Assembly: GCF_006345805.1 (NCBI RefSeq)
Contig: NC_043016.1
Coordinates: 24,676,001-24,740,000 of the forward strand
Reading direction: 5' to 3'
From: Octopus sinensis
Taxonomy: Eukaryota
Length of the DNA stretch: 64,000 nt
Made by a program: the position numbers and the translations under genes. Below the pieces are notes generated by a model. It was not told the DNA's origin. It saw only the letters and a program-made list of their open reading frames with translations, and did no database searches. How positions within the stretch are numbered: the first letter of the stretch is position 1; each line of letters starts with the position of its first letter. Positions 21,802-28,312 of this stretch are shown one piece after another.

Positions 21802-21889
21802 AGCTGGGTGATCAGGTCCCAAAGTTTTCTCTCTTATGCCTAAAGCATCATTCAGTAGATTAGCGGCTTCCTTATATTTTCCTTGGTCT
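21802..21889 (-). CDS. KLC: KLC coding exon 6b (canonical TPR2 helix B): (R)[29 protein letters not shown]
   Basis: tttgtttgcag acceptor, gtgagt donor; 88 nt, phase 2 to 0. Confidence 0.97.
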
Positions 21890-22983
21890 CTGCAAACAAA
21901 TTTCATAAATTTGAAATAAAATTGATAAACATTTTGTGGATTTCCATTGAGTGGAAAAACAAAACAATTGTAGTCCACAGAGCCAGTCTGATTGTTAAGT
22001 CTATATGCAAGAGAATGTATTTTAATAAATCATGAGAGATAGAGGAGGGGGAGGGGCATGAAAGAAAATGTGGAGATGAACTTAAAAAAAAAATCAGTAT
22101 AAGTAGTTGCTTATTGTCAAGGTTAAACTACAATTGACTAAATGCAGTTGTATATGTGTGTATATATAGTATGTTTACACTGCTATTTGCAAATAAAATA
22201 TAAAGTATTCAATGTGTGTTGTAAAGTAAATAGTTACTTTATTAGTTCTATTTGTACATGTCTATATGTACATCTACATGCACAACCACAAACACATACA
22301 TATATAGATATCCACATACAAACACATAGACAGCCAGATATACAAACAAAAATGCACATATACACTTCTTGCAAGCACATACACGTTATGTATGCATGTA
22401 TACACTTTCATATGAAGAAAGAAAAGGAATATATGTTTTTCTTAATAAGAATGCATTACATTATCCATAAATATATATAAATGTATACTGTACATGGGTG
22501 TTTAAAATATAAAATGAAAAGTTTTCTTTCTTCTGACAATTGAATTACTAATTATTTCATAAGATTAAATATTTATTTTGAGAATAAATTAGCAACCATT
22601 ATGGTTTCTGTTCCTTGGAAACAGCTGATCTTGTATCTTTCCACTCAGACACTCCCAATCCATTTGTGTCTCCTATAGTCATCACCCTTCTGGTGTCCAA
22701 TGCTCTAGGTTATGCACTAAATGCTATACCCAGTTCTTCCTCACCTAAACATCCACCTCCTAGAATCTCTACCCAGCTCATATCTCTCTTGCAACAATTT
22801 AAACATGACATTAATAAGATCAAGCTAACTAGTCTCAGAGTACGTCAAAAAGTCATGGGGCACTGCTTTTCCCTTGGGTTTAGTAAGCAAAAATGAAAAG
22901 GCTTAACTTATTTGAAGTATTATCAAAAATATATATATTAGACAGAGCCTTATTCTCCCAAATACACTCACTAAAAGTAGGAG

Positions 22984-23211
22984 TTAACCCATTTAGCATT
23001 TAAACTGGCCACATCCAAGCCCAAATGTTTTACCAGTTTTATGTTTAAGCCAGACAGATCTGGCCTCTCACATCTACTCTACAATGCCATTGTAAAAATA
23101 AACAATCACATCATGAATCCCAAAGTTACAAGATAATGCATGATTAATTCAAAAGAATGTCAATAAATATACATTACATTGGACAGAGTAACCTGAATGC
23201 TAAAGGGTTAA
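22984..23211. mobile_element. piggyBac-like MITE (TTAA TSD)
   Basis: ttaacccatttagcatt ... aatgctaaagggttaa. Confidence 0.85.
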
Positions 23212-23249
23212 AAAACACTATCACTTCAACAGGGCTCATAGATATGATG

Positions 23250-23365
23250 ATAATGAAAGGCAAAGTTGAACTCAGTAGAATTTGAACTCAAAACGTAGTG
23301 ATGGGCAAAATACTGCTAAGCATTTCATCCAACATGCTAATGATTTTGCAGCTCACTGCCTTAAA
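23250..23365 (-). mobile_element. Nin/Deu-domain SINE 5' fragment
   Basis: gaaaggcaaagttgaactc..gaatttgaactc...gctaagcatttc...gctcactgcc. Confidence 0.7.
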
Positions 23366-23499
23366 AGATAATAATAATAATAATGATTGTCTTTCATGTT
23401 AAGTTAACATCCAAGTACTAAAGCTTATAATTTGCAGAAAGAGACCATGCCATGTGAGACCTCTGACAGCAGGTTGCTGTCTGCTCTCACAGAATCAAC

Positions 23500-23933
23500 C
23501 AGAGCAAGTGAGATCAAGAGCTCTGAGAAGTGAAACGACAGAGCCCCGGGCTAGTAGGGTATTAAGAGCACCATCCGAGCGTAATCGTTGCCAGAATGGC
23601 TATCTGGCCTCCGTGCCAGTGGCACGTAAAAAACACCATTCGAGCGTGATCGTTGCCAGCATCGCCTTACTGGCACCTGTGCCGGTGGCATGTGTAAAAG
23701 ATTCGAGCGAGGTCATTGCCAGTACTGCCTGACTGGCCCCGTGCCAGCGACACGTAAAAGCATCCACTACACTCTCGGAGTGGTTGGCATTAGGAAGGGC
23801 ATCCAGCTATAGAAACTCTGCCAGATCAAGATTGAAGCCTGGTGCAGCCATCTAGTTCGCCAGCCCTCAGTCAAATCGTTCAACCCATGCTAGCATGGAA
23901 AGCGGATGTTAAATGATGATGATGATGATGATG
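23500..23933 (+). mobile_element. RTE LINE 3'UTR-only copy with (GAT)n tail
   Basis: Matches 17530-18010 (aaaagcacccactacactctc...caacccatgctagcatggaaagcggatgttaaatgatgatg). Confidence 0.85.
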
Positions 23934-24589
23934 AATAATAAACAACTTAGGGGAAGTGATTAGCAATTGAGTTTCTTTGATTAAAATTTGGTAATCATTA
24001 TTATCTAGACACTTTGCAGCAAAATTTGCCATTTACTGAGAAACTTTAGATTGACAAATTTGAAGCAATTCATTAAAAAGTTGTTCCTGAAAATAACTAT
24101 TCTCAAATGCCTTAAAATTTGAATATTCGTTAATTAACTTTTCAATGATGGCCAAGTTTTGAAATGTCTTGAAATTTCTTTTCAAAAATAAGGAAAAAGA
24201 ACCAACTGCAAATAATGGCAATGATCTTACTATGAATGAATGAGATCTAATCAAATTCATATACGCTTTTTAATTCAACTAACATACCAGTTGTCAGCAT
24301 TTGAAAATAGTCATAAAATGAATAATACCCTGAGTTATATTTTAAAATACCTTCAAACTAAATGAAATGTTAAAAATATAATGCACAATTTATTGCTTTT
24401 TTTTTTCTTAATAATTAACAATTTAACAATATTTATTCTTCATATCTCATGGTCTAGTATGTTTTAAAAAGTTGATATAATAATAAAACATATAATGATA
24501 AATGTCTTTAGAAATTTCAATGTTTTCTATATTTAAAAAGGTGAGGAATTTCAAGTATGCTTCATTTTATAGTTTATTTTTAAATCTTC

Positions 24590-26054: not shown

Positions 26055-26422
26055 TTGTTTCAGCCATTTGACTGTGGTCATGCTTGAGTACCGCCTTTAG
26101 TCAAACAAATCGATCCCAGGACTTATTCTTTGTAAGCCTAGTACGTATTCTATCAGTTCCTTCTGCCGAACTGCTAAGTTACAGGGATGCAAACACACCA
26201 ACATCGGTTGTCAAACAATGGTGGGGAGACAAACACAGACGCACAAACATACACACACATGTGACTTCTTTCAGTTTCCATCTACCAAATCCACTCGTAA
26301 AGCTTTGGTCAGCCCAAGGCTATAGTAGAAGACACTTGCCCAAGATGCCACGCAGTGGGACTGAACCTGGAACCATGTGGCTGGTAAGCAAACTACTTAC
26401 CACACAGCCACTCCTATGCCTA
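26055..26422 (-). mobile_element. tRNA-derived SINE (family of 55277-55702), near full length
   Basis: ...gacacttgcccaagatgccacgcagtgggactgaacc.ggaaccatgtgg..ggtaagcaaactacttaccacacagccactcc. Confidence 0.9.
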
Positions 26423-26623
26423 TGGAGATATGCTTCAAATACATCTTTGTGTAAAGAAATTAATATTAGAACTGAAATGTCAGTCTAAATAAACTACTAA
26501 TTTGTCTTTAAAGTACCAATGGCCAAGACAATATTTATATTTTTACATACTAAAAATTTAGAGAACTAGCTAAAAACTCAATGCTTACTTAATAAAATAA
26601 TTGTGAGTGATATGTAATAAATC

Positions 26624-26960
26624 ACCTGACTGGCACCCATGCTGGTGGCACATAATAAGCACCATTCAAGTATGGGTCAATGCCAGTGCCACCTGACTGC
26701 CTCCTCATGCTGGTGACATATAAAAAGCACCATCCAAATATGGTCGATGCCAATGCCACCTGACTGGCTTCTGTACCGGTGGCACATAAAAAGCACCCAC
26801 TACACTCTCAGAGTAATTGGTGTTAGGAAGGGCGTCCAGCTGTAGAAACTTTACCAGATCAGATTCGAGCCTGGTGCAGCCTACTGGCTTGCCAGTCCTC
26901 AGACAAACCATCCAGCCCATGCTAGCATGAAAAACGGACATTAAACGACGATGATGATGA
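26624..26960 (+). mobile_element. RTE LINE 3'UTR-only copy
   Basis: Same 3'UTR repeats and tail (ggacattaaacgacgatgatgatg). Confidence 0.85.
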
Positions 26961-27779
26961 CGATATTTGACTGTTGACATTCAAATATTAACTTCGGAAA
27001 TATGGAAAATCCTTTCTAAATTTCAAAAGAATTTTAAAATCTGTTCAACCTACAGAAATATAGATACAGCAAACATAAAATTAAGAAGGTGATGATATTT
27101 AAACTGTCTAAAGATTTATTGTCCCATTTACTACTAGACTTATTAAGAACAGAATAAAACACCAGATGTCACATTCTAAATTGAACTCTGCCCGCCTCCA
27201 TTGTGACCATCTGCAAAATCTCTAGACATGCAGACACCGATTTGGATGATGGAGAATATATACCACACACCTGTCACACTGAACAAAACACATACAATTT
27301 CACATTGCACCATGTATAATGAACCACTGCATGTTAGAATGTGCAGGATGGTCCTTTACTAAATGTCTGCATAGTACATAGGGAACTATGAATTTGAAGG
27401 GATCACACCCTCAGAACAATTAGTAATATTACATGAGACTGCTCAATTTGGGCTGATGTGGGCTACACAATAACAGCACAATATTTTCATAGCCAAGAAA
27501 TCAGACTTAAGACAAGAAAGCATTTCACAAAACTCATGATGAAGGTATCAAGTTAAATCCATGTATAGGCTCTAAAGCAAAGAAAAAAGTACTTAAGTTG
27601 AAATACAACATTAAATACATAATTATAAATAGAAATGTTGAATACATAACTATAAAGAGAGATGTAAAATTTTACTTCCTAAATCAAAGAATCATTTCAA
27701 ATGAATAAAATCTAAACTAAACCAACCAACCACCATATCAAATTATATTAAAACTGCAACTGATCAAATGTGATAATAT

Positions 27780-27981
27780 TGGTTTCAAATTTTGGCACAA
27801 GACCAGCAATTTTGGGAGTAAACTGATTACATCAACCCCAATATTCAACTGGTACTTATTTTATCTACCCTGAAAGGATGAAAGGCAAAGTCGACCTTGG
27901 CACAATTTGAACTCAGACAGACAAAAAGCTGCTGAGCATTTTGCCTAGCATGCTAACAATTCTGCCAGATCGCTGCCTTTA
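27780..27981 (-). mobile_element. Nin/Deu-domain SINE with 17-bp TSD
   Basis: atcaaatgtgataatat at 27763-27779 and 27982-27998 flanks the SINE. Confidence 0.9.
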
Positions 27982-28224
27982 ATCAAATGTGATAATATCA
28001 AAACTACAAATATATGATATGGATTGTGACAGATGCAACATGTTTTTTTTATTTGGTTAAATTTCATATTTAAAAAAGAGGAAATATTTCTATCCTAATA
28101 TAACCTCGACAGTAAATGTAATTTTTTATAAGGGCAATAATTTTTAACAAAAAAAATTCTTTTCCATGTTTAATACAATAAGTTAAATTTTAACTATTGT
28201 TAATTTTACATTCCTAAAACTCAC

Positions 28225-28312
28225 AGTTGGGTCATCCTTCCCAAGTGCTTTCTCTCTGATTTCCAGAGAAGAATGGAGACATGACATGGCTAGTTTTATT
28301 GATCCCAAATCC
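28225..28312 (-). CDS. KLC: KLC alternative exon 6a (duplicated, putative mutually exclusive): (R)DLGSIKLAMSCLHSSLEIREKALGKDDPT
   Basis: tttggtttttacag acceptor, gtgagt donor; 88 nt, phase 2 to 0, no stops; 14/29 aa identical to exon 6b with no gaps. Confidence 0.85.

Follow-up and report, generated by a model that had tools for sequence, protein, structure and literature searches.

Alternative exons for one part of the TPR domain in an octopus kinesin light chain gene, and their counterparts in other lophotrochozoans

Tandem-duplicated, mutually exclusive exons are known from Drosophila Dscam1, Mhc and 14-3-3zeta and from vertebrate FGFR (IIIb/IIIc) and PKM (exons 9/10). Vertebrates possess four kinesin light chain (KLC) paralogues. 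We analyzed a stretch of 64,000 nucleotides (nt) from Octopus sinensis (NC_043016.1, positions 24,676,001 to 24,740,000; hereafter the window), the minus strand of which carries most of one KLC gene, and focused on two neighbouring exons of this gene, 6a and 6b, that encode alternative versions of one half of the second TPR repeat (TPR2). Splicing of mammalian KLC1 is described as C-terminal in the available portion of PMC8318374, and papers on squid and sea-urchin KLC isoforms are cited in the available portion of PMC2148443. Duplicated mutually exclusive exons are a familiar device; what is new is their occurrence within the TPR domain of KLC, an important domain where they were unexpected.

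The protein encoded in the window displays the heptad coiled coil, the LFP-type acidic linker (LGFP within an acidic stretch) and the six-TPR domain of the KLC class. An Octopus KLC (P0127) could be aligned to the window exon after exon and matched solved KLC1 and KLC2 chains with E values of 8e-234 to 6e-128, and the exon 5 peptide was 100% identical to proteins of three named Octopus species. Exons 6a and 6b both run from phase 2 to phase 0, the translation of each beginning after one base of a split codon, and they possess the acceptors TTTTTACAG (6a) and TTTGCAG (6b). Aligned without gaps, they are identical at 14 of 29 residues and 46 of 88 bases. An initial annotation of this DNA had reported two 88-nt exons of identical phases after exon 5, with acceptors and GTGAGT donors, together with the gapless 14/29 identity of their peptides; we found all of this on the minus strand by translation and alignment. 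Joining exons 5, 6a and 7, or exons 5, 6b and 7, leaves the frame open through exon 9 in each case. By contrast, inclusion of both (5+6a+6b+7) leads to a stop at the sixth codon of the shifted 6b, and omission of both (5+7) to a stop a few codons into exon 7, so that only inclusion of one or the other is productive, as the same annotation had argued. Equal length and phase, valid splice sites, homology between neighbours and unproductive double inclusion and double skipping are features that the two share with mutually exclusive exons.

A protein search with exon 5 matched 2817 proteins, of which 120 were listed and 115 of those carried the anchor motif. Among these 115, 83 contained a b-type 29-mer, 24 an a-type one (with a signature of Gly9, His/Gln/Leu13 and a variable position 17) and 8 something else, four of the latter being gene models with an a-type followed by a b-type segment (Magallana, Nucella, Elysia and the annelid Lamellibrachia, the last read as out of frame). 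Ten clusters yielded 13 a-type entries among 91 listed members, one of them already within the 24. Counted by source names among the matches listed, 17 species of molluscs and nemerteans possess separate a and b isoforms. They comprise bivalves (three Mytilus, Crassostrea virginica, two Saccostrea, Ostrea edulis, Mizuhopecten and Argopecten), gastropods (Haliotis asinina, two Patella, Gigantopelta, Physella and Elysia), the chiton Liolophura and the nemertean Lineus; all five entries listed for Doryteuthis carry the b version. The isoforms of the 17 species are automated annotations, not experiments, and a-type isoforms outside octopus are annotated as full-length and in frame. A pattern scan of metagenome contigs gave four loci (L003-L006), all genomic KLC genes, in which an 88-nt a exon is followed after 220-435 nt by an 88-nt b exon. 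The a donor is GTGAGT in 4/4 loci, and the closest named protein came from an annelid in 3/3 loci tested. Their b exons encode a protein identical to that of octopus 6b, and a exons other than that of octopus share 24-25 of 29 residues with b. Beyond Lophotrochozoa, the comparison covered vertebrate KLCs, which are b-like, and one gene on a contig designated C12467, described below. The exon pair is almost certainly real and old. An old, selected, mutually exclusive pair had been proposed from the window; it proved older and wider than supposed, with bivalves, gastropods, one chiton, one nemertean and annelid-like loci also carrying it.

We then scanned the whole minus strand, ungapped and in three frames, with 24 exon-6 peptides, and found 6a to be the second-best match to known exon-6 peptides. 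Its score of 71 compares with 66 and 47 for the gene's own TPR1 and TPR3, and the best non-exonic stretch reached only 22, indicating that the resemblance of 6a is not due to chance. One copy of 6a is present in the assembly G000, the sole further match lying on contig C12467 of G000 (520 kb; ~373,300-374,850, minus strand; L002 and L009). This match is an intact, fast-evolving KLC gene with 49.5% identity over the TPR region and GT-AG introns of 24-27 nt. A neighbouring gene on the contig also looks interrupted by very short introns. The contig is probably DNA of a co-assembled other organism, perhaps, judging by the tiny introns, a dicyemid parasite.

Exon 6a changes 15 of the 29 residues, and nine of the changes fall among the 19 columns that are invariant in 24 a and b peptides. 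The C12467 KLC changes eight of these 19 columns, and 8/8 are also changed in 6a (P 1.2e-4; 3/20000 simulations). Overall, 12 of its 13 changes in this helix coincide with 6a positions (P 1e-4), and it has Leu7, Ser10 and Glu17 in common with octopus 6a. This coincidence with an intact, independent KLC indicates that 6a is altered where a working KLC can alter. The proportion of nonsynonymous differences (pN) for 6a is 0.33-0.40 versus a saturated synonymous one (pS). When neutral decay was simulated to the same amino-acid distance, the open frame and the AG/GT sites were kept in ~10% of cases, and 112 of 6420 stop-free simulations reached the score of 6a against a profile built only from TPR1, 3 and 4. 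Two further tests were set aside: a 0/5000 simulation result was confounded by old synonymous saturation, and ten 'core' positions had been chosen after inspection of the data. Also not counted as evidence were 20 rows from organisms A-C that contain all four sampled 6a words, and a comparison of intron pieces of organism A with the window (~5% different; 273/5311 letters in the 8 pieces listed), at which distance four intact words would have a ~4% chance if neutral; the contig alignments listed for X2 and X14 did not include the 6a pieces. We consider it very likely that octopus 6a is spliced and under selection.

A hint of splicing came from one contig of sequencing run X23 (record 23, 445 nt), which tracks exon 5 as far as position 29174, a single base beyond the donor, and has another 43 letters after it. 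The intron starts with GT, 6a with GG, 6b with A and exon 7 with GT. The one-base overhang points to a joint of exon 5 with 6a, because 6b predicts no overhang and exon 7 one of two bases. In run X14, the matching contig (record 8) ends exactly at the exon 5 donor. Run X23 contains one of the four sampled 6a words, as expected with ~44 bases of 6a covered; among the listed holders of these words in a search of sequencing runs, no run was recorded as RNA. An A-to-G edited first base of 6b was considered as the source of the overhang and seems less likely: the 43 letters would then fall on 6b, where two bins should show depths of 0.05 and 0.28 versus the 0 and 0.1 listed, an argument that rests on missing cover. 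Most likely, the X23 contig reveals, indirectly, exon 5 spliced to 6a.

What would such a splice choice change in the protein? With the Arg at the end of exon 5 set to KLC1 R266, residues D253, M257, N259, N301, N302 and V305 fall correctly, and exon 6 corresponds to KLC1 267-295, a segment made up of the turn and second helix of TPR2 together with the loop that leads to TPR3. The split codon of R266 reads Arg with either 6a or 6b. By the TPR consensus, positions 4, 7, 10 and 14 of exon 6 should point outward, with positions 5 and 9 packed on the following repeat; the leucine at position 12 presumably lines the tryptophan pocket. Exon 6a has other residues at positions 5 and 9 and also in place of Lys4, Glu7, Asn10 and Asp14, all four of which are otherwise invariant. 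It keeps Gly3, Ala8, Leu12, Leu16, Arg19, Leu23, Gly24 and Pro28, and position 12 is Leu in all 24 a and b peptides as well.

These changes bear on the possibility that 6a directly rebuilds the pocket for cargo and autoinhibition and so creates a second cargo specificity. The 15/29 altered residues, including those at positions presumed to pack on the next repeat, would favour it; the unchanged leucine at position 12, presumably a pocket residue, argues against it. According to the available portion of PMC6214655, the tryptophan of W-acidic motifs occupies a place between TPR2 and TPR3, and Y-acidic cargo peptides are gripped by first helices, second helices (alpha4 included) adding a smaller number of secondary contacts. 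Both the tryptophan site and these secondary contacts favour a rebuilt pocket, and the secondary contacts count against an effect mainly on the outer face. However, 0/16 contact residues named in that portion lie inside 267-295, so that exon 6 does not line the groove by this measure, and the LFP stretch is modelled there between alpha1, alpha3 and alpha5. Heavy-chain docking and JIP3 binding use TPR1 in the available portion of PMC13078783. A directly rebuilt pocket is unlikely in our judgement, and the initial claim of two cargo-binding domains is not borne out by the 16 named contacts. Most likely, the 6a product still folds as a TPR domain and retains the groove residues but differs in its outer face and in how TPR2 packs on TPR3. 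Its effect can be expected, with fair assurance, to be mainly outer-surface or allosteric, and any influence on cargo is probably indirect, via the outer surface or the TPR2-TPR3 packing.

The explanation that we prefer combines an ancient mutually exclusive pair, a living 6a and a switch of the outer helix; as a whole, it seems to us somewhat better than an even bet. The pair would have arisen when an exon of the single-copy kinesin-1 light chain gene was duplicated in tandem in an ancestor shared by molluscs and nemerteans and probably also by annelids. Octopus 6a would come from the upstream 'a' exon and would then have changed fast. Exon 6b would be the default, and 6a, which we infer to be spliced and translated, a minor or tissue-restricted form, with exclusivity enforced by splice-factor choice and by decay of products with both exons or neither. 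The switch would swap the outer TPR2 helix together with the loop leading to TPR3 and leave the groove residues of exons 5 and 7 unchanged. It would alter the outer surface by replacing two invariant acidic residues and an Asn, and would change the packing between TPR2 and TPR3. Such changes in packing or surface could tune W-acidic/LFP binding indirectly or remove a partner of the outer face.

A number of observations weigh against this explanation. Among transcripts, the 6b-7 joint was seen in runs X2 and X7, with one contig there unbroken across 6b-7-8. No 6a-7 junction was seen among the 15 of 1516 joints listed, nor does any of these 15 involve 6a; the same listing, dominated by intronic repeats, is without even the 5-6b joint, and its lack of a 6a joint hence carries no weight. 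The cover of 6a in X7 belongs to an unspliced contig (28231-28538), and the X23 evidence consists of one contig of depth 4.2, judged by its end positions, from a run whose RNA nature is a guess, although its 7-8 joint is spliced. Among proteins, 37/37 examined from cephalopod clusters are b-type (15/60 and 15/18 members of the two large clusters being listed). Searches with 6a and its flanks found none among database proteins of 73-2000 amino acids and none among those of 22-70, and the best 150 hits of a HMMER search with 6a were all multi-repeat TPR proteins. The TPR profile fit of 6a is lower than that of any a or b exon (38.5 versus 50-66), and its Pfam TPR_10 score of 21.6 bits falls below the cut-off of 27.5, compared with 35.6 for 6b. 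As for descent, 6a has Met at position 9 in place of the a-type invariant Gly, its mean BLOSUM scores to a and b are near equal (62.5 versus 61.4), and exon trees are uninformative on its placement, with saturated branches and support near 50.

Part of this would suit an old pair whose octopus 6a is a dying exon, drifting neutrally after loss of function. An identity of 13-15/29, far below that of other a exons, the lack of 6a in all 37 cephalopod-cluster proteins and the weak TPR score are all consistent with it, and octopus is also without a second exon pair of TPR4 (see below), showing that loss occurs in this lineage. We nevertheless regard a dying exon as improbable, as the frame, the length and both splice sites are intact, the changes spare fold positions and match those of the independent intact KLC, and one probable spliced junction exists (X23). 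Least credible among the alternatives is a mainly regulatory role for 6a as a 'poison' cassette, the joint splicing of which with 6b would lead to decay and a lower KLC level. Joint inclusion does give a stop early in 6b, and the RNA hint lies only at the acceptor side of 6a. Conserved TPR fold positions would, however, be needless in such a cassette, and a-type isoforms elsewhere are full-length and in frame.

The divergence of 6a also raises the issue of its descent, since its identity to each of the a and b peptides is limited to 13-15 of 29 residues. By its upstream position, its 88 nt and its 2-0 phase, 6a agrees with the a-type exon of lophotrochozoans, and its His13 is found in 6/13 a-type and 0/11 b-type peptides. 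Based on position, length, phase, donor and His13, orthology to the upstream 'a' exon, followed by fast evolution, is quite probable. Alternatively, 6a may be a separate, cephalopod-specific duplicate of 6b that replaced a lost 'a', in which case the arrangement would be convergent. Neither identity nor trees join 6a to the a-type, and the Met at position 9 fits this alternative too. Yet position, length, phases and the GTGAGT donor equal those of the a exons of L003-L006, His13 is confined to the a-type, synonymous sites are saturated between 6a and 6b, and one loss plus one gain would be needed; we think a separate origin hardly likely. Descent from the 'a' exon is thus the reading we retain, and the pair is real, old and probably still used in octopus.

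How exclusivity is kept was addressed by considering known devices in turn. Steric exclusion between 6a and 6b is ruled out by the 6335-nt spacer, and U2/U12 incompatibility by the sites, all of which are GT-AG with ordinary donors. We found no consistent duplex above shuffled background that would indicate docker/selector RNA pairing within 800 nt, in octopus or in L003-L006, long-range pairing across the 6.3-kb intron being outside the scan. The TGCATG near 6b, which we take to be an RBFOX-type motif, is only a weak lead because the 15.6 kb that separate exons 5 and 7 contain 10 copies. CTAAC, possibly a STAR/Quaking-type or branch-point signal, was noticed three times in each of the a-b introns of L004, L005 and L006 versus 0.2-0.5 expected, and it is not enriched in L003 or octopus; the motif was chosen after looking. 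Because no steric, minor-spliceosome or RNA-pairing device was found, regulated splice choice combined with nonsense-mediated decay of frameshifted products would be the simplest account of exclusivity.

A second duplication concerns the 90-nt exon encoding helix B of TPR4, which bivalves, gastropods, a chiton, annelids and locus L003 carry as two versions, one acidic and one basic. Both versions are present together, in frame, in 17 listed proteins; both can stay in frame because 90 is a multiple of three. No second copy of exon 9 was found in the octopus window or in G000. We offer as a tentative extension, which we think may well be wrong, that lophotrochozoan kinesin-1 possesses an undescribed, roughly half-billion-year-old splice code in which the TPR2 and TPR4 helix B pairs rewrite the outer TPR surface, and that octopus dropped the TPR4 pair and made its 'a' exon into a tissue-specific, functionally new light chain without the outer contact. 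If true, such a two-pair code implies a partner or regulatory contact on a TPR face for which the available portions of PMC6214655 and PMC13078783 name no ligand.

Coordinates of the features are collected in Table 1. Elsewhere in the gene, a short exon on the minus strand at ~1245-1283, between TPR5 and TPR6, is present in P0127 and may be a cassette exon. An upstream coding exon (49247-49378, minus strand) corresponds to the N-terminal extension of P0127, and other Octopus isoforms are shorter ahead of the TPR domain, consistent with 5' splicing. The KLC introns contain interspersed repeats resembling short interspersed nuclear elements (SINEs) at 17500-18010, 23500-23990, 26600-27000, 27770-27920 and other places, with internal units of 65-67 nt; these repeats are very abundant in sequencing runs. 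A degenerate 39-nt tandem repeat of ~5 copies lies at 15560-15790 in the intron after 6b.

Table 1. Positions of the KLC exons and associated features (window coordinates, except for locus L003)
Feature	Position	Strand	Description
KLC exon 5	29175..29403	-	TPR1 plus the first TPR2 helix; phase 2 at its end, within the Arg codon matching KLC1 R266; spliced contigs
Exon 6a	28225..28312	-	upstream version of the exon for TPR2 helix B and the TPR2-3 loop, highly divergent; 88 nt with AG acceptor and GTGAGT donor
Intron 6a-6b	21890..28224	-	6335 nt; SINE-like repeats inside
Exon 6b	21802..21889	-	downstream, canonical version; 88 nt with AG acceptor and GTGAGT donor; joined to exon 7 in runs X2, X7
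TGCATG motif	21759..21764	-	37 nt past the 6b donor; weak lead only
KLC exon 7	13517..13618	-	TPR3, phase 0; equivalents of KLC1 N301, N302, V305, K309, Y313
KLC exon 8	13139..13222	-	loop and first helix of TPR4; 7-8 joint in 4/4 runs aligned
KLC exon 9	12184..12273	-	TPR4 helix B; single here, duplicated in other lophotrochozoans
L003 TPR4 exon pair	9225-9323 and 9611-9718

The novelty suggested by the initial annotation stands in part. We found no paper on the pair and no database protein with octopus 6a, while the pair as such is already contained in automated isoform annotation of other molluscs. Our literature search, at the level of listings and the opening parts of abstracts, found no description of a TPR-internal KLC exon pair, with subscription papers and supplements, which may list the event, outside the search. 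Exon 6a is apparently missing from the annotated proteins examined, so that analyses of cephalopod transcriptomes, editing and proteomes would overlook it. The neurons of squid, octopus and sea slugs are classic models of transport, and the pair offers a natural two-state test for the role of the TPR2 outer helix. Vertebrates diversify the handling of kinesin-1 cargo by paralogues and tail splicing; lophotrochozoans appear partly to use the TPR domain of one gene for this, in a manner kept across phyla.

The octopus pair can be compared with four kinds of described systems. Its closest counterparts are the automatically annotated a-type KLC isoforms (XP_064621971.1 of Lineus, XP_064602672.1 of Liolophura, XP_041353785.1 of Gigantopelta and XP_021360381.1 of Mizuhopecten), which use the same exon slot of 29 residues with a upstream of b where the order is visible. 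Those a exons differ from b at ~3-7 residues, whereas octopus 6a differs at 15, nine of which lie in columns invariant across 24 other peptides. Like the exons of Dscam1, Mhc, 14-3-3zeta, FGFR and PKM, 6a and 6b are neighbouring homologous exons of the same length and phase that encode alternative versions of one structural element, with double inclusion or skipping breaking the frame. Unlike the Dscam1, FGFR and PKM type of case, the octopus element is half a TPR repeat in the cargo subunit of a motor, no docker/selector pairing was found within 800 nt, and the spacer is 6.3 kb. Known KLC splicing, in mammalian KLC1 (available portion of PMC8318374) and in squid (P46825-1 to -4), likewise diversifies one KLC gene, but the variation described in that portion lies in the C-terminal tail and that of octopus inside the TPR domain. 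Finally, vertebrate KLC1 and KLC2 resemble the octopus arrangement in providing two versions of the TPR domain in one organism (available portion of PMC6214655). They are paralogous genes with selectivity arising from the groove residues N343 and N469 in that source, whereas in octopus a single spliced gene would supply both versions and leave the named groove residues untouched.

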